DNA from: Actinomycetota bacterium
GTDB lineage: Bacteria > Actinomycetota > Actinomycetes > S36-B12
Assembly: GCA_016717115.1 (NCBI GenBank)
Contig: JADKGE010000001.1
Coordinates: 573,598-637,597, forward strand
Direction of reading: 5' to 3'
Length of the DNA stretch: 64,000 nucleotides
In this document: piece by piece, positions 8,902 to 44,853 of the stretch
How the letters are laid out: every line of letters starts with the position of its first letter
Position numbering within the stretch: the stretch's first letter is position 1
Translations under genes and position numbers: made by a program
Notes under the pieces: model-generated
Databases searched by the model: none
Seen by the model: only the letters and a program-made list of their open reading frames with translations
What the model was told of the DNA's origin: nothing

Positions 8902-10032
8902 CTAGACCCGGCGGCCCCGCTGCGCTGCGATGGCGTCGGCGATGCTCCTGGCCTCGATGCCGATCTCCTCAGCATCCCGGTGGGCGAGACGTGGAAGCCG
9001 CAGTAGTACAGGCCGGGGGCGGCGGACTCGACCCCTGTCGTGAGTGGGGTGCCGGCCGCGTCGTAGGTCGCGGGATCGGGCACGAACTCGTCCACCCGTG
9101 GCCGGTACCCCGTCGCCAGGATCACGGCGTCGAACTGGGCCGTGGCGCCGTCGTCGAACACGACACCGTCCGTCGTGAACCGCTCGACGCCCCCGTGAAC
9201 CGTGACGTCCCCCGACCTGATCAGCTTCATGGTGCCGATGTCGATCAAGGGGATGTGCTTGTCCTTCTCTATCTGGGTGGCGGGACCGTACGGGAGCTTG
9301 CGAAGGCCCACCTTCGTGATGTCGCCCACGGTCATGCGCAGCACCGGCGCGTTCATCGCGTCGGCCACGGCCGACGGCAGGCGTCGCTGCGCGATGCCGA
9401 TCGTCAGGATCGGCAGGCCCAGCACCTCCTTCGGGATGACGTTGACCGCGCTGCGGACGGAGAGGGCGGGATGCGCCCCATGCTCATGCAGGTCGATCGC
9501 GATCTCACCTCCGGAGTTGCCGAATCCCACGACGAGCACCCGCTGACCGGCATACTCGCGTCCGTTGCGATAGTCGCTGCAGTGCTCGACGCGGCCGCGG
9601 AAGTCGTCCACCCCGGGCCAGGTCGGCACCACAGGGATCCGGGCGTTGCCGGTGGCGACGACGACGTGGGTTGTCTCGAACGCGTCGACTGGCGTCCGGA
9701 CGCGCCAACCCGCCTCACCGCGCTCGATGGAGGTGACCCGCTGCTCCAAGCGGATGTCCAGGGCGAACCCGCGCGCATACGCGTCGAGGTAGTTCACGAG
9801 CTCGTCCCGCGACACGTACCGGGGACTGCCCTTGGGCAGCGGCACGAACGGCAATGCGGAGTGCCCCTTGTCCGTGTGCAGGTGCAGGCGGTCGTAGTGG
9901 CGGCGCCACGTCGATCCAACAGTGTCTGCCTGCTCGAGGATCACCGACTCCAGCCCTGCCCCTTCGCAGGCACGCGGCCACGGCGAGGCCCGCCGGCCCG
10001 GCGCCGACGACGACGATGGGAGGCGCGGGCAT
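8902..10032 (-). pseudogene. flavin-containing monooxygenase-like FAD/NAD(P)-binding oxidoreductase, two frameshifts
   Basis: The N-terminus MPAPPIVVVGAGPAGLAVAACL carries GxGxxG and starts at ATG 10032. The body lies in the frame of ORF 8805-10346 (VVGFGNSGGEIAIDL, ATGYRP). The C-terminal EIGIEARSIADAIAAQRGRRV* is back in the first frame. Confidence 0.7.
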
Positions 10033-10128
10033 GCGGGCAGTGTAGGCGGCGTGCTGTGATCGTTGACAGCAATTCGCCGTCGCCTCACACTGACGATGCA
10101 TCTCGCTGGGGGCGAAGGGAGTTCGCGT

Positions 10129-11790
10129 ATGCCCGCCGTCGGATTCCCCATGGCGGATTTCGCGACGAGCCGTCGCATGATGACCGCTCTGGCAGAGGGT
10201 CCCTTCACGCAGCTGGAGGGCGAGCCGCTGACGACGTCGTTGTCGGTGCCGTGGGAGCGGCTTCTGCCCGGGCCGGTCGGCAGCCGCTTCAGCACCGACG
10301 TCGGGGGTCCGGGGCGACCTCGTGCTCGCCCGCTCGTGCTCGACACCGAGTTCGAGTCCGTCTCCTACGACGATGTCGGTTGCCCGAGCGGCCTGGAGGA
10401 CCTGCTGGGGGACCGTCGCTTCCTGGCGCAGCACGCGTACGCCATCGCGGCATCGACCCTCGACCTCTTCGAATCGACGATGGGCCGACGCCTGGGCTGG
10501 AAGGCGCGAGGCCACCGCCTGGCGCTCAAGCTGTACGAGCCGATCCCGTTCGACGAGACCGGCTACGACGGGCAGCGGTGCGAGATCCGGTTCGGGCATC
10601 GCAAGGACCCTCGCGCTCGTCGGCACGTCCCCCTGGCCCTCTATCGCGATCTGATCACCCACGAGGTGACGCATGCGATCATCGACGGCTACCGGCCCCA
10701 CCTCGCCGACCCCGACGGCACTCTCGACGAGCACGCCATCCACGAGGCCGTCGCGGACGTGGTCGCGATGCTGTCGGTGTTCTCCTCGACCGAGCGGGTC
10801 GCCGAGCAGCTGAACGCGGCCCAGGCCACGGCGGAGGAGGGAATCTCCGACGACGCCCTGGTGCAGACCGGCCTGTTCGGAGTCGCCGACGGCCTGCTCA
10901 CACGTCAGGCACTTCGCCGTTCGGTGACCGACCGCGTGCCGCCCGACTGGCGGTCGGAGCGGGAGCCCCATCGCCGCGGCGCCGTCCTCGTCAAGGGCCT
11001 GATGGACACCGTGCTCACCTTGTGGCAGACGCGCATGGCTCGCCCGGGCGGTCGGGCGAGCGAGTACCAGATCGCCGACTCCGGGGCGAGGGTCGGGCGT
11101 CAGGTGCTCGCCATGCTCATTCGCGGGATCAGCTACACCCCCCCGATCGACGTCACCTTCGACGACATCCTTCGCGGCATCCTCGCGGCCGACGCGGTCG
11201 TCGTGCCCGACGACGATCATGACTACCGCGGAACGCTGCGCGCCGCCTTCGGACCGCTGGGGATCACGGCTCCGGACGACGATCTCGACGGCCTGTCCGG
11301 GCTGCGCGATCTGCACTACCCGGTGCGGCTGTCCTCCCTGGCGTCCGACCCCGAAGAGGTCTACCGGTTCCTGTGGGAGAACCCCGCCATGCTGCGCGCG
11401 GCCGCGATCGATCCTGACATCCCCCTGGTCGTCGAGCGTGTTCGGCCGAGCATGCGGGTGGGTCCTGATGGCTTCATCGTCTCCGAGATCGGTGCGAGCT
11501 TCGTCCAACAGGTGCCGATGAGCGCCTACGACGCCCGCCGGCGGCTGGGGCTGCGGGTGAAGGGCAACATCGTCCTGCGCGGCGGCGGGCTCATCCGTTT
11601 CAACGAGGGTGGGCGGCTGGCCTTCGCGGCCATCAAGCCAGTGCTCGACGCGGAACGCCAGCAGGCACGGCTCGACGAGGCGGCCGGGCCGTCGATGCTC
11701 GGGGTCGACGCGGCCGATGTGGCCACGCGCCGCGCCGGCGTGTTCAGCGAGATGCACGCATCGGCGCGGCGACTGGCCGACGACAGGTAG
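10129..11790 (+). CDS. cytoplasmic thermolysin-like (HExxH...E) putative zinc metalloprotease, 553 aa, unassigned family
   Basis: SD GAAGGGA precedes ATG at 10129. The motif HEVTHAIIDG is followed about 24 residues later by IHEAVADVVA, which resembles the thermolysin HExxH / NEAxSD arrangement. There is no signal peptide. The intact frame ends 4 nt before the convergent caspase gene. Confidence 0.6.
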   Translation: MPAVGFPMADFATSRRMMTALAEGPFTQLEGEPLTTSLSVPWERLLPGPVGSRFSTDVGGPGRPRARPLVLDTEFESVSYDDVGCPSGLEDLLGDRRFLAQHAYAIAASTLDLFESTMGRRLGWKARGHRLALKLYEPIPFDETGYDGQRCEIRFGHRKDPRARRHVPLALYRDLITHEVTHAIIDGYRPHLADPDGTLDEHAIHEAVADVVAMLSVFSSTERVAEQLNAAQATAEEGISDDALVQTGLFGVADGLLTRQALRRSVTDRVPPDWRSEREPHRRGAVLVKGLMDTVLTLWQTRMARPGGRASEYQIADSGARVGRQVLAMLIRGISYTPPIDVTFDDILRGILAADAVVVPDDDHDYRGTLRAAFGPLGITAPDDDLDGLSGLRDLHYPVRLSSLASDPEEVYRFLWENPAMLRAAAIDPDIPLVVERVRPSMRVGPDGFIVSEIGASFVQQVPMSAYDARRRLGLRVKGNIVLRGGGLIRFNEGGRLAFAAIKPVLDAERQQARLDEAAGPSMLGVDAADVATRRAGVFSEMHASARRLADDR

Positions 11791-23163: not shown

Positions 23164-24867
23164 GTGGATTCCGAGGGGATCGACGCGGGACGGCGGCGCT
23201 GGCAGGAGCGATTCGATGCCGCGGTCGCGTCCGGGCAGGTTCGCGCGGCCGACTTCACCACGCTGAGCGGAGTCGACGTCGCGCCCGTGTACGGGCCGCC
23301 GCCCGAGGTCGACGATCCACGGATGGAGTCCATCGGCTGGCCGGGGGAGTTCCCCTTCACGCGCGGCCTGTACGCCACCGGCTACCGCGGGCGTACGTGG
23401 ACGATCCGCCAGTTCGCGGGCTTCGGCAACGCCGAGCAGACCAACGAGCGGTACCGCATGATCATGCAGAGGGGCGGCGGCGGCCTGTCCGTCGCGTTCG
23501 ACATGCCCACGCTGATGGGCCTGGACTCCGACGATCCGAGGAGTCTGGGCGAGGTGGGACACTGCGGGGTCGCGATCGACTCGGCCTTCGACATGGACGT
23601 CCTGTTCGATGGCATCCCGCTCGACCAGGTCACGACCTCGATGACCATCTCGGGCCCGGCGATTCCCGTCTTCTGCATGTACGTGGCCGCGGCGGAGCGG
23701 CAGGGCGTTGACATCTCGTCGCTCAACGGAACGCTCCAGACCGATATCTACAAGGAGTACATCGCTCAGAAGGAGTGGCTGTTCCCGCCGGAGCCGCACC
23801 TGCGGCTCATCGGGGATCTCATGGAGTTCTGCGCCAAGCGGATCCCCTACTACAAGCCGTTGAGCGTGTCCGGCTACCACATCAGGGAGGCCGGCTCGAC
23901 TGCCGCGCAGGAGCTGGCCTTCACCCTCGCCGACGGGTTCGCCTACGTGGAGCTGGGCGTGTCACGGGGCCTGGACGTCGACACCTTCGCCCCCGGTCTG
24001 TCCTTCTTCTTCGACAGCCACGTCGACTTCTTCGAGGAGATCGCCAAGTTCCGGGCCGCCCGCCGCATCTGGGCCCGATGGCTGCGCGACGTCTATGGCG
24101 CGACCACGGAGCGGGCCCAGTGGCTGCGGTTCCACACCCAGACGGCGGGCGTCTCGCTCACCGCCCAGCAGCCGATGAACAACGTGGTGCGCACGGCCGT
24201 GCAGGCGCTCGCCGCGGTGCTCGGCGGCACGAACTCCCTGCACACCAATGCCCTCGACGAGACGCTCGCCCTGCCGACGCAGGAATCGGCGGAGGTGGCG
24301 CTGCGAACGCAGCAGGTGATCATGGAGGAGACGGGGGTCGCGAATGTCGCCGACCCGCTCGGCGGATCGTGGTACGTCGAGGAGCTGACCACGAGGCTGG
24401 AGGACGAGGCCGAGGCGATCTTCAGGCAGATTCGCGAGATGGGGGAGTCTGGATCGGTCAGTGCCATCGGCCCGATGACGTCCGGCATCCTGCGGGGCAT
24501 CGAGAACGGCTGGTTCACCGGGCACATCGCTGAGGCGGCGTTCGACCATCAGCGAGCGCTCGAGACGGGGACGAAGCGGATCGTCGGCGTGAACTGTCAT
24601 ACCGACTCCCTTGCCAAGGACCTGGAGATCCTGCGGATCAGCCGGGACGTCGAGCGTGACCAGGTGCGGGCCCTCGGCGAGCGCCGGCGCGTGCGCGACG
24701 ACGCTCGCGTCAGCCGGGCACTGGCCGCGGTCGCCGAGACGGCGCGAGGCGAGGGCAACCTCATCGAGCCCATCCTCGAGGCGGCCCGCGCCGAGGCGAC
24801 GCTGGGCGAGATCTGCGGCGAGCTACGCGGCCTGTGGGGCGGTTACACGGAGAACGCCCACTTCTAG
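23164..24867 (+). CDS. acyl-CoA mutase large (catalytic) subunit, isobutyryl-CoA mutase IcmA-like
   Basis: 567 aa. The sequence FPFTRGLYATGYRGRTWTIRQFAGFGNAEQTNERYRMIMQRGGGGLSVAFDMPTLMG shows the ATGY...RQF pattern of IcmA-type rather than MCM-type (ATMY...RQY) enzymes. There is no B12-binding domain. The TAG stop at 24865-24867 lies inside the IS target duplication. Confidence 0.85.
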   Translation: MDSEGIDAGRRRWQERFDAAVASGQVRAADFTTLSGVDVAPVYGPPPEVDDPRMESIGWPGEFPFTRGLYATGYRGRTWTIRQFAGFGNAEQTNERYRMIMQRGGGGLSVAFDMPTLMGLDSDDPRSLGEVGHCGVAIDSAFDMDVLFDGIPLDQVTTSMTISGPAIPVFCMYVAAAERQGVDISSLNGTLQTDIYKEYIAQKEWLFPPEPHLRLIGDLMEFCAKRIPYYKPLSVSGYHIREAGSTAAQELAFTLADGFAYVELGVSRGLDVDTFAPGLSFFFDSHVDFFEEIAKFRAARRIWARWLRDVYGATTERAQWLRFHTQTAGVSLTAQQPMNNVVRTAVQALAAVLGGTNSLHTNALDETLALPTQESAEVALRTQQVIMEETGVANVADPLGGSWYVEELTTRLEDEAEAIFRQIREMGESGSVSAIGPMTSGILRGIENGWFTGHIAEAAFDHQRALETGTKRIVGVNCHTDSLAKDLEILRISRDVERDQVRALGERRRVRDDARVSRALAAVAETARGEGNLIEPILEAARAEATLGEICGELRGLWGGYTENAHF

Positions 24868-25884
24868 GTGTTCTGTCCAAGCAGGTTGGTCACGCGGGTG
24901 ACCGGTGGCTTGCCGCCGAGTGCGGTGTGTGGCCTGTGATGGTTGTAGATGTGGAGCCAGCTGGTCGAAGGCCTTCCGGCGGGCTGATTCGGAGGAGTAG
25001 GCCTTGGCGTAGCCCCATTCGTCGCGCAGTGTCCGCTGGTAGCGCTCGACCTTGCCGTTGGTCTGGGGTCGGTATGGCCGGGTGCGGCGGATGGCGATGC
25101 CGAGGTCGGTGTTCAGCCGGACCCAGTCGGTGGAGCGGTAGGCCGGGCCGTTATCGCTGATGACCTCGGTGACGGTGATCCCGTGCGAGGCGTAGAACGC
25201 GATCGCCCGGGTCCAGAAGGCCACGGTGGTCGCCTTGGTCTCGTCGTCGTGGACCTCGGAGTAGGCCAGGCGGGAGTGGTCGTCGACTGCGGAGTGCACG
25301 AACGCGTAGCCCGCCCTTCCGGTTCCTCGTCGGGACCGCTGCTGGCGGCGGTCGGCCTCGATCTGCTTGCGTCCGGTCTGGAACCCGGCGCGTCCGTTGA
25401 CCTTCCATCCGCCGCCGGGAGGGATCAGGCCGAACTTCTTCACGTCCACGTGCAGCAGGTCCCCGGGCCGGTCCCGCTCGTAGCGGATGACCTCACCGGT
25501 GGCCCGGTCCATGTGATCGAGCCGGTTGAGGCCCTCGCGGACCAGGATCCGGTGCACGGTCGAGGCGGGGATCCCGACCCGGCCCGCGATCTGGACCGGC
25601 CCGAACCGCCGCTTCGTTCGCAGGTGCTTGACCCTCCTCTCGATCCGGCGCCTGGTCCGCGTCGGCGATCGGTGCGGCCGGCTCGAGACATCGACCATGT
25701 CCCGCGACGTCGGCGTCATCCCGGCGGCCAACACCGCCCGATACCGACGCGACCATCGGATCACCGTCGTGGTCGAGACCTGGAACCGCTCCGCAGTCCC
25801 ACGGATCGTCGACCCCGACTCAACATGGAACCGGGCCAGCTTCAACCGGCCCAGCTCGGACAACGGGGCATTAGCGTGGGCCAT
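24823..25884 (-). pseudogene. IS481-family transposase with a C-terminal frameshift
   Basis: 353-aa ORF identical to copy A through ...SESARRKA. An extra base at 24967 then replaces the conserved LTSWLHIYNHHRPHTALGGKPP tail with unrelated sequence, and the ORF runs out of the IS into flanking DNA. Confidence 0.75.
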
Positions 25885-25993
25885 GAAGGCCTCCTTCGTG
25901 AATGTGATTGCTTGGTCGCTTCACACCTCACAAGGAGGCCTTCCCCACGTCAACAGCTGACGCGCCTCGTTACCAACGTCGATGGACAGAACA
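24869..25993 (-). mobile_element. IS481-family insertion sequence, copy B (1125 bp), with a perfect 6-bp target duplication
   Basis: TCTAGG at 24863-24868 is repeated at 25994-25999. The termini match copy A. Copy B differs from copy A by 5 substitutions and 2 single-base indels. Confidence 0.92.
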
Positions 25994-25994
25994 T

Positions 25995-26870
25995 CTAGGC
26001 GTCGGTCGGTCCGGGCCAGGTCGCGAGCGTCGGCAGCGTGACGAGGTTGCGACCCACTTTCGGCTGATCGACCGCGACCACGCCTCTGCCGTCGGGCAGG
26101 AACGCCAGGCCTCCGGCCTTGGTGACCCAGTCGGGCAGGGCCCACACCTGGTCGAAGGAGGCCTCCGTAGGCGCATCGCCGGCAAGCGGCAGCCGGAGCC
26201 GTCCGACGGCGTTGCTCTTGTCCGACAGCAGGTACAGGTTGCCGTCCGGGCCGACGGCCGCATCGGACAGGTCGTCGAGCTCCGCACTGGCCGGCCACCA
26301 CGCGAGGGCCGTGAGGGTGTCCTCGTCGGGCGGAGTCCACCCGTGCGCCGCTTGGCCCAGTGTCTGGGCCGCGACGCCGAGCGGAGGGTCCCCCTGCGGC
26401 CCGAACTCGATGAACCCGGCCGGCTTCTTCTCCTTCACGACGAGCACGTGGCCACCCGGTAGGAGCACCAGGCCCTCGCCGCGTGAGCTGGGATCGGTCG
26501 CCCAGGTCGAGCCGAGTCCGGGCAGATCCGCGCCGTCGAGACCGAAGGCGTGGGTGAGTCGCCGATCGGGCACGTCGAGGACGAGGAGCACCGGCGGGTC
26601 CTCGATGAGAACCAGCGCCTGTCGGATGCCGTCGGTGGCCACTGCCTCGGCCTGCTTGACCCGCGGTGAGCCCGGCGGGGCGGAGATCGTGGACAGGTCG
26701 ATGACGCGCCACCCGGTGACGTCCGTGTCGCCGGCGGCAAGCTCGAGATAGGCGAGGTCGGGCCCGTGGTCGCCCACGGCCACGAGGAAGGTGCCCTGCT
26801 CCCAGGCGGCCACGGCCAGACCCGACACCTCGACCAGCGGGATCGAACCGAAGGAGACGAGGTCAAGGGC
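25995..26870 (-). CDS. beta-propeller-like protein (SdiA-regulated/phytase-like family, tentative); start uncertain
   Basis: The ORF 25995-27056 is protein-like only downstream of about 26870 (LAVAAWEQGTFLVAVGDHG, DLSDAAVGPDGNLYLLSDKSNAVGRL). The upstream part of the ORF runs through a simple repeat and a palindrome and is probably not coding. The stop lies inside the IS target duplication. Confidence 0.45.
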   Translation of the reverse strand, partial: ALDLVSFGSIPLVEVSGLAVAAWEQGTFLVAVGDHGPDLAYLELAAGDTDVTGWRVIDLSTISAPPGSPRVKQAEAVATDGIRQALVLIEDPPVLLVLDVPDRRLTHAFGLDGADLPGLGSTWATDPSSRGEGLVLLPGGHVLVVKEKKPAGFIEFGPQGDPPLGVAAQTLGQAAHGWTPPDEDTLTALAWWPASAELDDLSDAAVGPDGNLYLLSDKSNAVGRLRLPLAGDAPTEASFDQVWALPDWVTKAGGLAFLPDGRGVVAVDQPKVGRNLVTLPTLATWPGPTDA

Positions 26871-26894
26871 CGACCACGAGCGGTGACGCCGGTC

Positions 26895-26940
26895 GCCCAA
26901 GCCCAAGCCCAAGCCCCTGCCCAAGCCCTTGCCTTTGCCC
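26895..26940. repeat. degenerate hexanucleotide repeat (GCCCAA)3-GCCCCT-GCCCAA-GCCCTT-GCCTTT-GCCC
   Basis: Read directly from the sequence. The repeat lies in the divergent intergenic region next to palindrome H1. Confidence 0.8.
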
Positions 26941-26967
26941 ACGCCCCCAAAGTACCCACCCCACTGC

Positions 26968-27031
26968 CGTCGAGTGGCGGCTTGTGGCGGTCCGCTGCGG
27001 GGCCCTTGCCGCCACAAGCCGCCACTCGACG
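26968..27031. repeat. palindromic element H1: perfect 23-bp arms with an 18-nt spacer
   Basis: CGTCGAGTGGCGGCTTGTGGCGG (26968-26990) is the exact reverse complement of 27009-27031. H1 shares the core CGAGTGGCGGCTYGTGGCGG and the 18-nt arm spacing with H2. Confidence 0.9.
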
Positions 27032-27054
27032 GGGAGTGGTGGCAGGGTTGGGGC

Positions 27055-27435
27055 ATGATCGATCACATCGCCATTCAGTGCGCGGACATCGCGGCCAGCG
27101 CTGCCTTCTACGACCGGGTTCTGGCGGAGCTTGGTGGTCGCCGACTCATGGACTTCGGTCCCGTCATCGGCTACGGCGAGGAGTTCCCGTCGTTCTGGCT
27201 CGGGCCGCTGACCACGGGCGAGGGGTTCCGGGAGGCCCACCTGGCCTTCCGGGCACCGAGCCGCGAAGCGGTCGTCGCGTTCCGTGACGCCGCCGTCGGC
27301 CTGGGTGCCGAAGTCCTGCACGAGCCACGGGAGTGGCCGGAGTACCACCCCGGCTACTTCGGCGCCTTCGTGCGGGATCCCGATGGCAACAACGTCGAGG
27401 CCGTCCACCACACCTGGGCTGCCCCAGAAGCCTGA
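27055..27435 (+). CDS. VOC/glyoxalase-family protein (126 aa)
   Basis: Starts at ATG 27055, internal to ORF 26929-27435. The sequence reads MIDHIAIQCADIAASAAFYDRVL and FVRDPDGNNVEAV. Confidence 0.85.
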   Translation: MIDHIAIQCADIAASAAFYDRVLAELGGRRLMDFGPVIGYGEEFPSFWLGPLTTGEGFREAHLAFRAPSREAVVAFRDAAVGLGAEVLHEPREWPEYHPGYFGAFVRDPDGNNVEAVHHTWAAPEA

Positions 27436-27443
27436 CCCCCCCA

Positions 27444-27505
27444 GCCGAGTGGCGGCTCGTGGCGGTCGAAACGACCGTTTCGACCGCCACGAGCCGCCAC
27501 TCGGC
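27444..27505. repeat. palindromic element H2: perfect 30-bp stem with a 2-nt loop; probable bidirectional terminator
   Basis: GCCGAGTGGCGGCTCGTGGCGGTCGAAACG-AC-CGTTTCGACCGCCACGAGCCGCCACTCGGC. H2 begins 9 nt after the VOC stop and ends 14 nt before the stop of the convergent gene. There is no U-tract. Confidence 0.9.
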
Positions 27506-27518
27506 GGAAGTGGGGTTG

Positions 27519-28097
27519 TTACCTTGGGGTTCTTGTCAGCCAGGGCCTTAGCCACTTCGTCAGGTAGGGCACCCCCAGCCAGGTCATCCAGGGCACGATC
27601 AACAGGGTCGACAGGGCCACGCGAAGGAAGATGTTCCACGCGACCACCTGCGGGATCACCAGCCAGTTGATGAGCAGCGACGCCGGATACAGGGCCATCG
27701 CGATGATGCTCGCCGTCTTCCAGCGAGGCGGCGGGGAGGACATCGCCTGCACGCTGGGCGCGAAGATCCCCTCGAAACCGCTGACCGACTGCGGGCGGGT
27801 GGGGCCCTCGACAAGGGGCTGGGCCTTCGCCAGCCACTCACGGCGCACCGAGCTGCCCTCCCAGGCGCTGAGGTCTGCCGCCGTGGCGAAGCTGAAGGCG
27901 ATAACGAGGTCCTCGCGATCGGGCGCCGTCGGCGGGTACAACTGCACCGCGAGGTGGCCCGGAAAGCGCGTGGCCGCCTCGCTGATGCCTTGGCCCCACG
28001 CGGTCAGTTCGTCCTCGCGACCGGGAGCGGGTCGCCGGGACACCACGACCGTCACCGCGAGAGGGGCGGCGACAGGGTCGCGGTCCGGCTCCGTCAT
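27519..28097 (-). CDS. ABM (antibiotic-biosynthesis-monooxygenase-like) domain protein with a C-terminal membrane region
   Basis: Start taken at MTEPDRD (28097). The ABM-like region reads LAVTVVVSRRPAPGREDELTAWGQ...FATAADLSAWEGSSVRREWL. Two to three hydrophobic helices sit at the C-terminus (IIAMALYPASLLINWLVIP and LSTLLIVPWMTWLGVPYL). Confidence 0.6.
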   Translation of the reverse strand: MTEPDRDPVAAPLAVTVVVSRRPAPGREDELTAWGQGISEAATRFPGHLAVQLYPPTAPDREDLVIAFSFATAADLSAWEGSSVRREWLAKAQPLVEGPTRPQSVSGFEGIFAPSVQAMSSPPPRWKTASIIAMALYPASLLINWLVIPQVVAWNIFLRVALSTLLIVPWMTWLGVPYLTKWLRPWLTRTPR

Positions 28098-28191: not shown

Positions 28192-28707
28192 ATGCAGAAC
28201 GAGTGGCTCGCCGGAACCGTGAACCGCCTAACTTCCGAACATCAGGCCCGTCGGGCTGAGAACACATCGCTGGGAGGCTGGATGACGCCGTTCATGGTTC
28301 GGGTGGCTGAGGCGCTCGGCGAGGACGTCGATCCCTCCGACCTGCCAGCAGTTGCCACCCGTCCGGCGGTCATCCGTCCGGTGGGCAAGGGAAACGACCT
28401 TCAGATCGCCTATCGAGGGCTCACGGAGCAACTGGTCTGCGAGGTGAACGCCCTCCTGTACGAGGAGGACGAGCACATGAGCCTCGTCGACGACATCGTG
28501 GGCAACGAGATGATGTTCTCCGTCTACTACAGGGGCCGCGCTGCCGTCGTCTCGACGGTGTTCGGCGAAGGCAAGGCCTACGGCCGCGTCGTCGCCGACG
28601 GACTCGACAACTCCGAGCCCCAGGAACTTGCGGGGCCCGAATCAGTGCAGGACCTTCTCCTTCTCCTCCTTCTGGAGTCGGACACCCCGCGCCATCCGGC
28701 GCACTAG
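28192..28707 (+). CDS. hypothetical protein (171 aa) upstream of the phenol hydroxylase operon
   Basis: ATG at 28192 lies in frame within ORF 27631-28707. The composition is protein-like but I recognise no family. The 3' end contains a 21-nt CT-only tract (28653-28673). Confidence 0.35.
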   Translation: MQNEWLAGTVNRLTSEHQARRAENTSLGGWMTPFMVRVAEALGEDVDPSDLPAVATRPAVIRPVGKGNDLQIAYRGLTEQLVCEVNALLYEEDEHMSLVDDIVGNEMMFSVYYRGRAAVVSTVFGEGKAYGRVVADGLDNSEPQELAGPESVQDLLLLLLLESDTPRHPAH

Positions 28708-28741
28708 TACCTACATCTCGTCATTCATCCAGGAGGTGAGC

Positions 28742-29764
28742 ATGCAATTCGAACTGCGCACGCAGGTGATTGAGCAACGGCGCAAGACCTTCTCGAATCT
28801 CGTGCGGCGATACGGCGATCGGCCGGCATCCCGCTACGAGGAGGGCTCGGTCGACATCCAGGCGACGGAGAACTTCCACTACCGCCCGCTCTGGGCTCCC
28901 GACAAGGAGCTCTACGACCCCGCTTACACGGTCTTCCGGCTCACCGACCCCTACTCCTTCATGGATCCGCGTCAGTTCTACTACGCGCCCTACGTGCAGT
29001 CCCGGGCAGCGATGGGCGACGCGTTCGCCAAGTCCCTGGAGTATGTGGACACCCGCGGCCTGCTGCAGAAGCTGCCGGCCGGATGGGACGCGCTCGTCGG
29101 CGATCTGCTGCTGCCGCTTCGGCACTACGAGGCCGGCGCGGAGCTGATCCTCATCGAGGGCTCACGGTTCGCCTACGGAACGACGATCGAGCAGGCGTGC
29201 ATGTACTCCGCCTTCGATCGCATCGGCAACGCGCAGAGCATCTCGCGTATCGGGATCGTCTACGCGGACGGTCACGATCACGCGCTCAGCCAGGCCAAGG
29301 AGAAGTGGCTCACCGACCCGGCGCTGCAGGGATTGCGACGCCTGATCGAGGAGATGCTGGTCGAGAGGGACTACGCCCGAGAGCTCATCGTCCTCGACCT
29401 CACCGATCGGCTGCTCTACTCGCTGATGTTCACGCATCTCGACGAAGCAGCGCTCATGGGCGGTGCCGGGGCGTACAGCCTGCTGGCGCAGCACTTCGCG
29501 GGCTGGTTCACCGACCAGCGCCGCTGGGTCGACCACCTGATCAAGACGTGGTTCGCGGACGAGGAGTTCGGCGAGGCCAACAAGGCCGCGTTCAACGACG
29601 TGCTCGCCGCTCGCTGGCAGCAGATCGTCGAGGCCGTCGGTGATCTGGCGACCGCTGTCGAGGCGCGGGTCGGCACGGGCGCCGTGGCCGCCTCGGATGC
29701 CGCCGCGTCGGCCCTGGTGACCGACCTCGAAGCCCTTGGCCTGACCGTTCCGGGAGGTAAGTGA
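28742..29764 (+). CDS. multicomponent phenol hydroxylase beta subunit (DmpL-like)
   Basis: SD AGGAGG precedes ATG at 28742. The 340-aa product has sequence typical of soluble diiron monooxygenase small subunits (NFHYRPLWAPD and QFYYAPYV). Its position is first in an L-M-N-O-P gene order. Confidence 0.8.
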   Translation: MQFELRTQVIEQRRKTFSNLVRRYGDRPASRYEEGSVDIQATENFHYRPLWAPDKELYDPAYTVFRLTDPYSFMDPRQFYYAPYVQSRAAMGDAFAKSLEYVDTRGLLQKLPAGWDALVGDLLLPLRHYEAGAELILIEGSRFAYGTTIEQACMYSAFDRIGNAQSISRIGIVYADGHDHALSQAKEKWLTDPALQGLRRLIEEMLVERDYARELIVLDLTDRLLYSLMFTHLDEAALMGGAGAYSLLAQHFAGWFTDQRRWVDHLIKTWFADEEFGEANKAAFNDVLAARWQQIVEAVGDLATAVEARVGTGAVAASDAAASALVTDLEALGLTVPGGK

Positions 29765-30054
29765 TGAGCGTCGAAGCAGAGCCCCGCATGGTGGGCGTCG
29801 ACCTGCAGGAGAACGAGGAGAACAGGGCTATCGTGGAGGCCGTCGAGGCTGACAACGAGGACCTGACCGTTCGTCACATGCCCGGACTGATCCGGCTGAC
29901 CAAGCCTGGTCGCCTGGTGATCAACCAGGCCAGCGTCGAGCAGCGGCTAGGGCGCCCGTGGGAGACCCACGAGTTCCAGCTGGCCATCGTGTCGTATTTC
30001 GGCGAGATCGTTGAGTGGGATGACGACGAGATCGTCATCGCCTGGAAGCACTGA
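29761..30054 (+). CDS. monooxygenase coupling/effector protein (MmoB/DmpM family)
   Basis: About 97 aa. The start (GTG 29761 or ATG 29764) overlaps the upstream stop. Size and position between the beta and alpha subunits fit this family. Confidence 0.8.
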   Translation: MMSVEAEPRMVGVDLQENEENRAIVEAVEADNEDLTVRHMPGLIRLTKPGRLVINQASVEQRLGRPWETHEFQLAIVSYFGEIVEWDDDEIVIAWKH

Positions 30055-30066
30055 GGAGAAGCGAAT

Positions 30067-31596
30067 ATGTCCGTTCCTACCCAGAAGCCCGTCCGCAAGC
30101 TGTCGATGAAGCAGCGGTACTCGGCGCTCACGCACGACCTCGATTGGCCCCTGTCCTACGTCGAGGAAGACGATGCCTTCCCCTACACCAAGTTCGAGGG
30201 CATCAAGGTTCACGACTGGTCCAAGTGGGAGGATCCCTTCCGTCTGACGGTGGAGTCCTACAACAAGTACCAGGCGGAGAAGGACCGTCGCCTGTACGCG
30301 GTTCTCGACGGCTTCGCGCAGAGCCAGGGCCAGCTGAGCCTGAGTGACGCGAGCTACATGAACGCGATGAAGATCTTCCTTCAGGGCATCCCGTCGGGCG
30401 AGTACCAGGCGCACCGCAACTTCGCGCATCTGGCCCGCTACCTCAACGGCCCCGGGGCTCGATTCGCCTCGCTGTGCCAGAGCATGGACGAACTGCGCCA
30501 CGCGCAGACGGAGATCCACACGCTGTCGCACTACAACAAGTTCTTCGGCGGCATGCACGACTGGAACAAGATGAGCGACCGCGTCTGGTACCTGTCGGTG
30601 CCCAAGTCGTTCTTCGACGACGCCGGCACCGCGGGCCCGTTCGAGTGGCTCATCGCCATCGGCTTCTCGTTCGAATACCTGCTGACCAACCTGCTGTTCG
30701 TCCCGTTCATGTCGGGCGCGGCGTTCAACGGCGACCTGCCCACGATGACCTTCGGGTTCTCGGCGCAGTCCGACGAGAGCCGTCACATGACGCTCGGCCT
30801 CGAGGGCATCAAGTTCATGCTCGAGCAGGACGAGGACAACCTGCCCATCGTGCAGGCATGGCTGGACAAGTGGTTCTGGCGCGGATACCGGCTCATCTCC
30901 CTCGTCGCGGGGATGATGGACTACATGCTCCCCAAGCGGGTCATGAGCTGGAAGGAAGCGTTCGAGCTCTACTTCGAGGAGCAGATGCTCAACGGCCTGT
31001 TCAAGGACCTCGCGTACTACGGCATCAAGCCGCCGCGCGACGTCGAGTGGGCCATTCAGGAGAAGGAGATCCTGTCGCATCAGGTGTACTGGATCCTGTA
31101 CCAGTTCAGCCATGCGGCGGCGTTCACCACCACGGTGCCCAATGCTCAGGATCAGGCCTGGCTCGCCGAGGCCTACCCCGAGACGTGGCCGATCTACAAG
31201 TCGGTCGTGTGGGACAAGGCCCAGAAGGTCATGGACGAGGGTGGCCGGTACTTCAATCCCGGTCTGCCGCAGCTGTGCCAGGTGTGCCAGATCCCGATGG
31301 GCTTCACCGAGCCTGGCGATCCGATGACCCAGTGCCAGCGGCACTCGATCTACGAGGGGGAACGCTACGACACCTGTTCCGACGGGTGCAAGTGGATCTT
31401 CGAGCGGGAGCCGGAGAAGTACGTGCAGGCGTGGCTTCCGGTGCACCAGATCTACCAGGGCAACTGCGGTGGCCCGACTCTGCCCGACGTCGCCGTCTGG
31501 TACGGCCTCGAGCCGGGCGACGGTGGCGAGTACGTCGGGTCCATGGACCAGCTCGACTGGGCCGCGTGGCACGCATCGACAGTGAAGGAGGGCTGA
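30067..31596 (+). CDS. multicomponent phenol hydroxylase alpha (diiron catalytic) subunit (DmpN-like)
   Basis: 509 aa. It carries two diiron ligand motifs, SMDELRHAQ and SDESRHMTLG. Confidence 0.9.
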   Translation: MSVPTQKPVRKLSMKQRYSALTHDLDWPLSYVEEDDAFPYTKFEGIKVHDWSKWEDPFRLTVESYNKYQAEKDRRLYAVLDGFAQSQGQLSLSDASYMNAMKIFLQGIPSGEYQAHRNFAHLARYLNGPGARFASLCQSMDELRHAQTEIHTLSHYNKFFGGMHDWNKMSDRVWYLSVPKSFFDDAGTAGPFEWLIAIGFSFEYLLTNLLFVPFMSGAAFNGDLPTMTFGFSAQSDESRHMTLGLEGIKFMLEQDEDNLPIVQAWLDKWFWRGYRLISLVAGMMDYMLPKRVMSWKEAFELYFEEQMLNGLFKDLAYYGIKPPRDVEWAIQEKEILSHQVYWILYQFSHAAAFTTTVPNAQDQAWLAEAYPETWPIYKSVVWDKAQKVMDEGGRYFNPGLPQLCQVCQIPMGFTEPGDPMTQCQRHSIYEGERYDTCSDGCKWIFEREPEKYVQAWLPVHQIYQGNCGGPTLPDVAVWYGLEPGDGGEYVGSMDQLDWAAWHASTVKEG

Positions 31597-31599
31597 GGC

Positions 31600-31923
31600 A
31601 TGCCAGTCGTGGCCATCAGCGAGTACAAGTTCCCGTCCAAGTCCCGCCAGGAGCTCTACGGCGACGACCAGCTCGTCCACGTGTGGTGGAAGGGCAATCC
31701 GTGGTTCGTCGCCGCCGGCTGCTTCCGATTCCCCAAGGCCATGCCGTGGGGGGACTTCGTCGGGGTGCTCAAGGGCTTCTACACGGCCGATCCGGACTTC
31801 GTCCCGGACAGCCTGGACTCGGTCCAGTGGGTCATCGACGACCAGGAGGTGACGCCGGATCCGTCGGCGTCGATGGAAGCCAACGGCGTCGGGCACAAGA
31901 GCCTCGTCCAGTTCAGCGTCTAG
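31600..31923 (+). CDS. phenol hydroxylase small subunit (DmpO/P4-like)
   Basis: 107 aa. It starts 4 nt after the alpha subunit stop. The call rests on size and position. Confidence 0.65.
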   Translation: MPVVAISEYKFPSKSRQELYGDDQLVHVWWKGNPWFVAAGCFRFPKAMPWGDFVGVLKGFYTADPDFVPDSLDSVQWVIDDQEVTPDPSASMEANGVGHKSLVQFSV

Positions 31924-44787: not shown

Positions 44788-44853
44788 CCGTCGACTGCAG
44801 CGCCGCGCGTCGGTCACGCCGACCTGACCGACGCGCGGCGCTGCAGTCGACGG
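44788..44853. repeat. perfect 29-bp inverted repeat with an 8-nt loop
   Basis: CCGTCGACTGCAGCGCCGCGCGTCGGTCA-cgccgacc-TGACCGACGCGCGGCGCTGCAGTCGACGG. It lies between the phosphatase stop (44870) and the AKR start (44729). There is no U-tract. Confidence 0.9.

Follow-up and report, generated by a model that had tools for sequence, protein, structure and literature searches.

Long palindromes bracketing a VOC gene are copies of a dispersed repeat family paired with a DUF559-type nuclease gene in an Actinomycetota genome

Why would one short gene lie tightly between two long palindromes that share the same arms? The question is raised by a 64,000-nt window (contig 1:573598-637597) of an Actinomycetota genome that we call G000 (3.88 Mb, 69% G+C, 91% complete), in which a gene of the VOC/glyoxalase family is flanked by two such palindromes, here termed H1 and H2. 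An earlier interpretation made from the letters of this DNA (the sequence-only reading) took the gene and its two palindromes for a neat unit, and offered as explanations a family like repetitive extragenic palindromic sequences (REPs) or miniature inverted-repeat transposable elements (MITEs), operator sites, a mobile cassette, and terminators or insulators. We find that the bracket is neither a switch nor a cassette but two copies of a genome-wide repeat, and the neat-unit reading fails, as the repeats are not specific to the VOC gene (2 of 28 copies). Specifically, we read H1 and H2 as solo members of a repeat family (family A) that a cognate nuclease would maintain or spread, much as REP-associated tyrosine transposases (RAYTs) do for REP doublets forming hairpins (REPINs), and we give this reading a probability of roughly 0.8. 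The features at issue are the following.

26958-27034, no strand: H1, solo family A palindromic repeat; core 26967-27032, element about 75 nt.
27055-27435, plus strand: VOC/glyoxalase-family gene, 126 aa; PF00903 (E 1.4e-9) and PF18029.
27436-27518, no strand: H2, solo family A palindromic repeat; core 27444-27505, occupying the entire convergent gap.

The geometry described by the sequence-only reading held up, namely that H1 and H2 are perfect, homologous palindromes of identical 18-nt spacing, and that the VOC gene lies between them with a divergent neighbor on the H1 side and a convergent one on the H2 side, as our gene calls (own codon-based prediction, 3612 genes, 89% of the genome) and the PF00903 match confirm. 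The H1 arms proved to be 24 nt each (26967-26990 and 27009-27032), 100% complementary and separated by an 18-nt centre; those of H2 are 30 nt each (27444-27473 and 27476-27505), likewise 100% complementary, with a 2-nt centre, while the gap from the inner GTGGCGG to CCGCCAC is 18 nt in both. The core common to the two, GAGTGGCGGCTYGTGGCGG, is present in each of the four arms and nowhere else in the window (four occurrences versus 0.17 in shuffles), and both elements have predicted folding energies of −80 to −85 kcal/mol (z −7 to −11), stable on either strand. Their centres are unrelated to each other (3/18 positions), and that of H2, TCGAAACGACCGTTTCGA, matches the centre of a copy from a second family (family B, C8:178600) at 17 of 18 positions. 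The divergent gap holding H1 spans 112 nt and the convergent gap holding H2 spans 83 nt. An Rfam search returned chance matches to microRNA hairpin models only, all far under gathering scores. Read by eye, a degenerate third arm copy lies to the right of H1.

Genome-wide, family A (arm CGAGTGGCGGCTYGTGGCGG) comprises 28 inverted pairs including H1 and H2, 27 of them with an exact 18-nt centre, under the consensus ACCCCG-YCGAGTGGCGGCTYGTGGCGG-N18-CCGCCACRAGCCGCCACTCGR-CGGGGT. All 28 avoid gene interiors, with 11 in convergent, 12 in tandem, and 4 in divergent gaps and 1 overlapping the ends of genes. Pattern searches and a count of long perfect hairpins revealed sister families, one of which has a copy elsewhere in the window.

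Family B, arm CGAGYGGTGAGTTGTCGGGG: 24 copies; 14/20 positions identical to A.
Family C, arm CGACTGCAGCGYCCSGCGTC: 28 copies, one at window 44788-44853.
Family D, arm GAGACCTGCAGYAGACGCC: 6 copies, the fewest and most degenerate of the four families.
44788-44853, no strand: the family C solo copy, with arm CGACTGCAGCGCCGCGCGTC, an 18-nt centre, and a perfect 29-bp hairpin (CGACTGCAGCG...), in the geometry of H1 and H2.

Families A to D thus hold 86 palindromes, 85 of them with the 18-nt centre, and perfect stems range from 24 to 45 bp around a core of 58 nt (whole element about 58-76 nt). Each element runs from a C-rich flank (C 55% on the left) through a conserved 20-nt G/T-rich arm, the centre, and the complementary arm to a G-rich flank (G 53-61% on the right). 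CGTC or CGCC before the arm pairs with GACG or GGCG opposite, and many copies begin with CGTC; for comparison with the GTTRRRY core of integron attC sites, most copies carry GTCGAGT and a minority GTTGAGT. The REP/MITE-like option of the sequence-only reading is therefore the one that the census bears out, with 28 family A copies and 86 in four families, almost always after gene 3' ends, and the genome-wide copy search it had proposed finds the motif many times at convergent gene ends, essentially the pattern it had associated with a generic repeat.

Arms and centres behave differently within these families, as pairwise identity is 0.89-0.91 for arms versus 0.37 for centres (the latter in A and B). 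Despite this variability, at least six of seven Watson-Crick pairs are kept in 27/85 centres, versus 0.3% of shuffled centres, which suggests that centre pairing is selected or templated and favors a hairpin or cruciform over an operator in duplex form. Related centres also recur at distant loci (e.g., C1:95739 and C7:120481, 16/18 positions), indicating that whole elements were copied.

All 86 palindromes are intergenic or at gene 3' ends, with convergent, tandem, and divergent settings in the ratio 36:35:7, and per kb of intergenic DNA, reckoned as it was before insertion, they number 0.71, 0.157, and 0.055, respectively, so that convergent gaps are 13 times denser than divergent ones. The median distance from stop codon to core is 14.5 nt. 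Such placement could mean that the palindromes are mainly RNA elements kept by the host, either bidirectional terminators lacking a U-tract or 3' hairpins that protect mRNA, with any link to a nuclease secondary. Besides the convergent excess and the closeness to stop codons, this account can draw on hairpins that are very stable on both strands with centre pairing maintained, and on G-U mismatches that slightly outnumber A-C ones on the sense strand in tandem contexts (49 versus 33), a bias too weak to decide on RNA-level selection. However, the closeness to stop codons is partly trivial, as the median convergent gap is 22 nt long; divergent promoter gaps hold seven copies, including H1; and no terminator-like site (GC-rich stem-loop plus T/U tract) was found in 26700-27800 and no T-tract after the stems, though the genome holds ordinary terminators with A/T tracts of its own. 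Species-specific arm families, each with a dedicated flanked nuclease (below), would also be unexpected for terminators that evolved independently. We regard the RNA account as possible but doubtful, and what it leaves of the terminator or insulator option of the sequence-only reading is a possible RNA-level side effect, while the terminator itself is at odds with the missing T-tract.

What sets these repeats apart is the company they keep. A single gene is bracketed by a palindrome pair seven times in G000, and all seven pairs are of one family, versus about 30% expected for random pairs; palindrome pairs within 1.2 kb number 6 versus 1.6 expected (p = 0.004). Four of the seven bracketed genes are paralogs encoding a protein of about 300 aa, and tblastn of the genome identified five paralogs in total, every one (5/5) with copies of its own palindrome family on either side.

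nA, C7:55217-56101: family A; about 294 aa.
nB, C7:146187-147080: family B.
nC, C1:429107-430036: family C.
nD, C9:138172-138997: family D; frameshifted.
n5, C2:49527-50420: family E, which has two copies only.

The relatedness of the proteins parallels that of the arms: nA and nB share 57% protein identity and 14/20 arm positions, n5 and nD share 57-69% and 15/18, and between the two paralog clades protein identity falls to about 30% and arm identity to 8/20. Further, the broken paralog goes with the smallest and most degenerate family, as the nD region (C9:138109-139005) is a pseudogene whose N- and C-terminal halves lie in different frames with the middle piece missing, and its partner is family D.

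These proteins are predicted to join an AbiEi-like N-terminal DNA-binding part to a C-terminal DUF559/Vsr-like nuclease domain of the PD-(D/E)xK type. PF04480 (DUF559) is matched at 21.2 bits by nA and 25.5 bits by nB (cut-off 20.6), and AbiEi_4 weakly in the N-terminal part of the paralogs; at least 864 homologs of about 300 aa carry PF04480 together with PF09407 (AbiEi_1), and NCBI names homologs DUF559 or endonuclease domain-containing proteins of Candidatus Nanopelagicales. Residues D226, E237, Y238, D239, G240, and H243 are invariant in 40 homologs. In an AlphaFold2 model (mean confidence score, pLDDT, 91), the C-terminal domain resembles the Vsr-like domain of I-Bth0305I (3r3p; template-modeling score 0.75 normalised to target, probability 1.00), and by sequence the nearest nuclease in the PDB is 3hrl, a DUF559 protein (weak match, E 0.07). 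No AbiEii toxin partner was found beside the nuclease genes.

The link between gene and repeat extends across the genus. Nuclease homologs are present in 33/33 genus genomes, with 1 to 11 each, and at least one long palindrome flanks the nuclease gene in 25/30 best-hit loci, with arms that are specific to species and paralog; at these same loci, palindrome density is 3.4/kb at the nuclease gene ends versus 0.055/kb elsewhere. The upstream palindrome lies about 80-130 nt before the start codon of the nuclease gene and the downstream one directly after its stop. In five further genomes, the dispersed family is the one that flanks the nuclease gene, namely G001 (about 28 copies), G047 (about 27), G020 and G010 (two families each), and G042. 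Flanking genes at the nuclease loci are common to up to eight species, and this synteny implies that the nuclease genes are vertically inherited while the repeats diverge alongside. Palindromes of the A/B type were also seen beyond the genus, in a few metagenome-assembled genomes of other uncultured Actinomycetes. In locus L052 (G049 C1:194000-208825), three palindromes intermediate between A and B separate single genes at 9913-11733, two of them near-identical with their centres included; the genes of this array encode a RES-domain protein, a nucleotidyltransferase/HepT, and two products without assignment, in a toxin-antitoxin-rich region near the contig end.

The same associations could arise if the repeats spread by another route (template switching, a transposase yet to be identified, or gene conversion), with the nuclease genes mere landing neighbors or users of the palindromes as operator or terminator. 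The AbiEi-type N-terminal part does suggest a DNA-binding regulator, the position of the upstream palindrome would be plausible for an operator, and n5 has flanking copies only. This alternative sits poorly, though, with palindromes on both sides of 5/5 paralogs and of most genus homologs, including directly after the stop codon; with dispersed copies that in each genome track the arm variant of its own nuclease gene; and with a nuclease motif that is invariant and a broken paralog whose family is the smallest. We consider it unlikely. AbiEi binds inverted repeats, and the AbiEi antitoxin of type IV toxin-antitoxin systems is the nearest comparison for the N-terminal part, given the weak AbiEi_4 match and the AbiEi_1 domain of homologs, but here the AbiEii partner is not adjacent and the C-terminus is a nuclease domain.

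Under the nuclease-maintained reading, two non-autonomous family A copies would have inserted into the gaps before and after the resident VOC gene, H1 landing between the −10 boxes of the divergent pair and H2 between two convergent stop codons. The nA protein would recognise family A arms, most probably in a hairpin or cruciform, and would cut the extruded structure, and so maintain or spread the repeats as RAYT does for REPINs. The invariant 18-nt centre, the kept centre pairing, and the strict conservation of the arms would fit such arm recognition and cutting. Binding, cleavage, and mobilisation by the nuclease are what we infer from these patterns, as is any role of the hairpins in RNA. 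Either H1 or H2 is possibly a local hop from the other copy.

Several points weigh against this reading. First, the case for nuclease action (binding, cutting, or moving the repeats) comes from comparison, and flanking copies linked to the gene would be expected to co-vary with it through descent alone. Second, intact n5 has flanking copies only and zero solo copies, and many solo copies of family A are better preserved than the two beside nA. Third, comparison of G000 with the empty site in G048, a sister species, yields no clear direct repeat, target-site duplication, or definable excision footprint, and presence/absence polymorphism of H1 or H2 within the species was not seen in the one other assembly, which is of the same strain. 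Finally, three of the bracketed genes do not encode the nuclease (the VOC gene, a beta-eliminating lyase-like gene, and a GDSL lipase gene beside nB), and chance accounts weakly for three such same-family brackets (0.295^3, about 0.03).

In every comparative respect tested except the enzyme, the layout matches that of the REPIN-RAYT systems, or REPtrons (Bertels and Rainey 2011, PMC3116915; PMC3337134). Common to the two are long hairpin repeats between genes, present in tens of copies, several family-enzyme pairs per genome, each family paired with one enzyme gene that is itself repeat-flanked (here 5/5 paralogs), an enzyme gene that is vertical at syntenic loci, and lineage-specific sequence variants. 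They differ in that the enzyme here is AbiEi-like with a DUF559 PD-(D/E)xK domain, not a HUH Y1 (IS200-like) transposase, and in that the repeat is a single long palindrome (20-nt arms, 18-nt centre) with no GTAG head, not two inverted short REP hairpins. The RAYT family PF01797 had no match in the 91%-complete genome, while control genomes do match. Homing endonucleases such as I-Bth0305I (EDxHD), other Vsr-like enzymes, and 3hrl share the nuclease fold and an acidic/His motif; however, homing endonucleases copy themselves into the empty allele, whereas here the gene stays syntenic and its flanking palindrome multiplies. We put at about even odds the broader possibility that winged helix-turn-helix DUF559 proteins serve a large class of long intergenic palindromes in Actinomycetota as dedicated enzymes of propagation or maintenance, each paralog recognising its own family's arms. 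This would be a second, independently evolved partnership of the REPIN/RAYT type, in which a domesticated nuclease of a different catalytic fold is joined to a repeat population.

The repeats may also be set beside other extragenic palindromes. Like REPs, bacterial interspersed mosaic elements (BIMEs), and the GTAG- and CGTC-tagged REPs, they lie mainly in convergent and co-directional gaps, and the CGTC class resembles them further in that a known transposase is absent there too and that many copies here begin with CGTC. Tagged REPs are imperfect palindromes of 20-40 nt, with an 8-9 bp stem, a 4-5 nt loop, an unpaired tag, and a CCA tail, and such repeats were not reported in Actinobacteria in the survey that describes them (Di Nocera et al. 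2013, PMC3733652). Membership in the CGTC-tagged class was rejected, as the stems here are 24-45 bp and the CGTC is base-paired, in disagreement with that class in stem, loop, and tag alike.

Is the VOC gene, then, a passenger or a resident? The sequence-only reading had kept open a cassette or mobile unit, and here the relatives are informative. The elements around the gene are as follows.

25995-26942, minus strand: divergent upstream gene, 316 aa; gene call, no Pfam match, orthologs in G048 and G008.
26951-26956, minus strand: −10-like box TACTTT, separated from the GTG start (26942) of the divergent gene by 6 nt (GGGGGC) plus a further 2 nt by coordinate.
27040-27048, plus strand: extended −10-like box TGGCAGGGT, 6 nt before the VOC ATG.
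27519-28097, minus strand: convergent downstream gene, 193 aa; gene call, ortholog in G048.

VOC orthologs with 76-82% identity are found in 12 other species of the genus. In G048, the order of upstream gene, VOC gene, downstream gene, and phenol-hydroxylase gene is the same as in G000, and there is a palindrome on neither side of its VOC gene; the convergent genes abut, and the divergent gap is 37 nt versus 112 nt, which corresponds to an insert of about 75 nt at H1. In G008, the upstream gene adjoins the VOC gene, and in other species the VOC gene is also found beside the same upstream genes. As the sister species has the same gene order and neither palindrome, the comparison indicates that the VOC gene is ancestral at this locus, not cargo, and the mobile-unit option is abandoned. 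The gap after the VOC stop has been filled more than once, with an A-like palindrome variant (14-nt centre) in G008 and a palindrome of the CGACCTTGAGGTT family in G010 and G020, so that the same permissive site appears to have been colonised repeatedly. The H1-VOC-H2 bracket is not a functional unit but two insertions at the nearest tolerated sites. In G004 (locus L033), an unrelated palindrome, CTGCCCCTCGCGTCAC-N16-GTGACGCGAGGGGCAG, lies about 60-110 nt upstream of the VOC ortholog.

That H1, the VOC gene, and H2 form a mobile cassette or composite unit of integron or transposon type, or the remnant of one, is in our judgment highly improbable. One short gene is tightly bracketed, the three near-identical palindromes of G049 likewise stand between single toxin-antitoxin-type genes, and the left flank of H1 (26945-26969, CCCCAAAGTACCCACCCCACTGCCG) and the right flank of H2 (27505-27529, CCCCAAGGTAACAACCCCACTTCCG) form inverted repeats beyond the family consensus, matching at 22/30 positions and ranking in the top 4 of 5304 flank comparisons. 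We give this flank likeness no weight in favor of a composite unit. Both stretches overlap resident sequence (on one side a −10 box belonging to the divergent gene, on the other the 3' end and stop-codon region of the convergent gene), and the H1 and H2 centres are unrelated. The VOC gene also occurs at the same locus without palindromes (G048) or with one of another variant (G008), copies are dispersed singly, and no array beside an integrase was seen, though no integrase search was made. The attC sites of integrons are similar in being imperfect palindromes with conserved outer boxes, a variable centre, and single short genes between sites, but differ from these repeats, which are dispersed singly in core intergenic DNA, surround an ancestral gene, and have perfect stems without extrahelical bases.

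Nor do H1 and H2 look like operators through which a dimeric regulator controls the VOC gene from both ends, the remaining option of the sequence-only reading. The arms do show symmetry, with an interval of 10 nt between two GTGGCGG boxes, and H1 overlaps the −35 position of both putative divergent promoters; yet the same arms adjoin 26 other unrelated gene pairs, mostly at 3' ends, VOC orthologs retain the −10 box without a palindrome, and selection on centre pairing points to a hairpin. We consider such control very unlikely, and a dedicated operator finds no footing in arms that recur beside dozens of unrelated genes and are missing from VOC orthologs.

H1 itself sits between two back-to-back −10-like boxes and left both intact. 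The VOC box probably marks a leaderless promoter, as judged from its position and conservation: TGGCANNNT or TGCAACAGT (the latter in G048) followed by 6-7 nt and a start codon is kept at the VOC loci of 9/11 relatives, the start codon being ATG, or GTG in one locus. For the divergent gene, the TACTTT box may be a promoter element; G048 has TAGGTT 6 nt before GTG, and a TAnnnT box is common to G000 and G048. A sigma-70 consensus scan at the VOC locus gave no match.

These findings bear on a wider question, as few features of bacterial genomes have gone unexplained for as long as REP-type repeats, to which one enzyme class, RAYT, has so far been tied. The DUF559 family shows the RAYT hallmarks (one gene per family, a nested gene, vertical inheritance, and co-diverging sequences), and DUF559, a domain of unknown function, gains a testable substrate, while the high-GC Actinomycetota, little listed in REP surveys, gain a candidate REPIN-like system. 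Our literature search found no paper linking DUF559 to palindromic repeats. In a table of PMC9881135, DUF559 genes are enriched among predicted inversion targets, which would fit genes flanked by inverted repeats.

There is also a practical warning, as perfect hairpins of 60-90 nt break or garble assemblies. The sole other contig with an identical VOC protein (L083, JGI 3300038404, 28 kb) comes from a second assembly of the same strain; it is noisy (99.2% identical, 21 gap openings) and carries both H1 and H2, each garbled through small deletions, which implies that such hairpins are error-prone in assembly or polishing. PF27539 is recorded on this contig for the protein of 27519-28097. Many nuclease-homolog contigs in the protein database are just 1-3 kb, as expected if assemblies break at the repeats.

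The surroundings of the locus add a few minor features. A GCCCAA-type hexanucleotide microsatellite at 26895-26942, reading VGKGKGLGRGLGLGLG, falls within what is probably the N-terminal end of the divergent gene; in G048 and G008 the orthologous N-termini are rich in Lys and do not contain it. An IS481-family insertion sequence (IS; 24857-26005; transposase gene 24823-25884, minus strand) with 41-nt imperfect terminal repeats (24857-24897 and 25965-26005) occupies the convergent gap between a methylmalonyl-CoA-mutase-like gene (23164-24867) and the gene at 25995-26942, a pair that is adjacent without the IS in G008. The idea that the palindromes are MITEs of this neighboring element was rejected, as its ends (...CTAGGTGTTCTGTCCA and TGGACAGAACATCTAG...) bear no relation to the palindrome arms. 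On the downstream side, the locus is closely followed by a soluble di-iron monooxygenase cluster (Phenol_Hydrox, MmoB/DmpM), at window 28628-31923.

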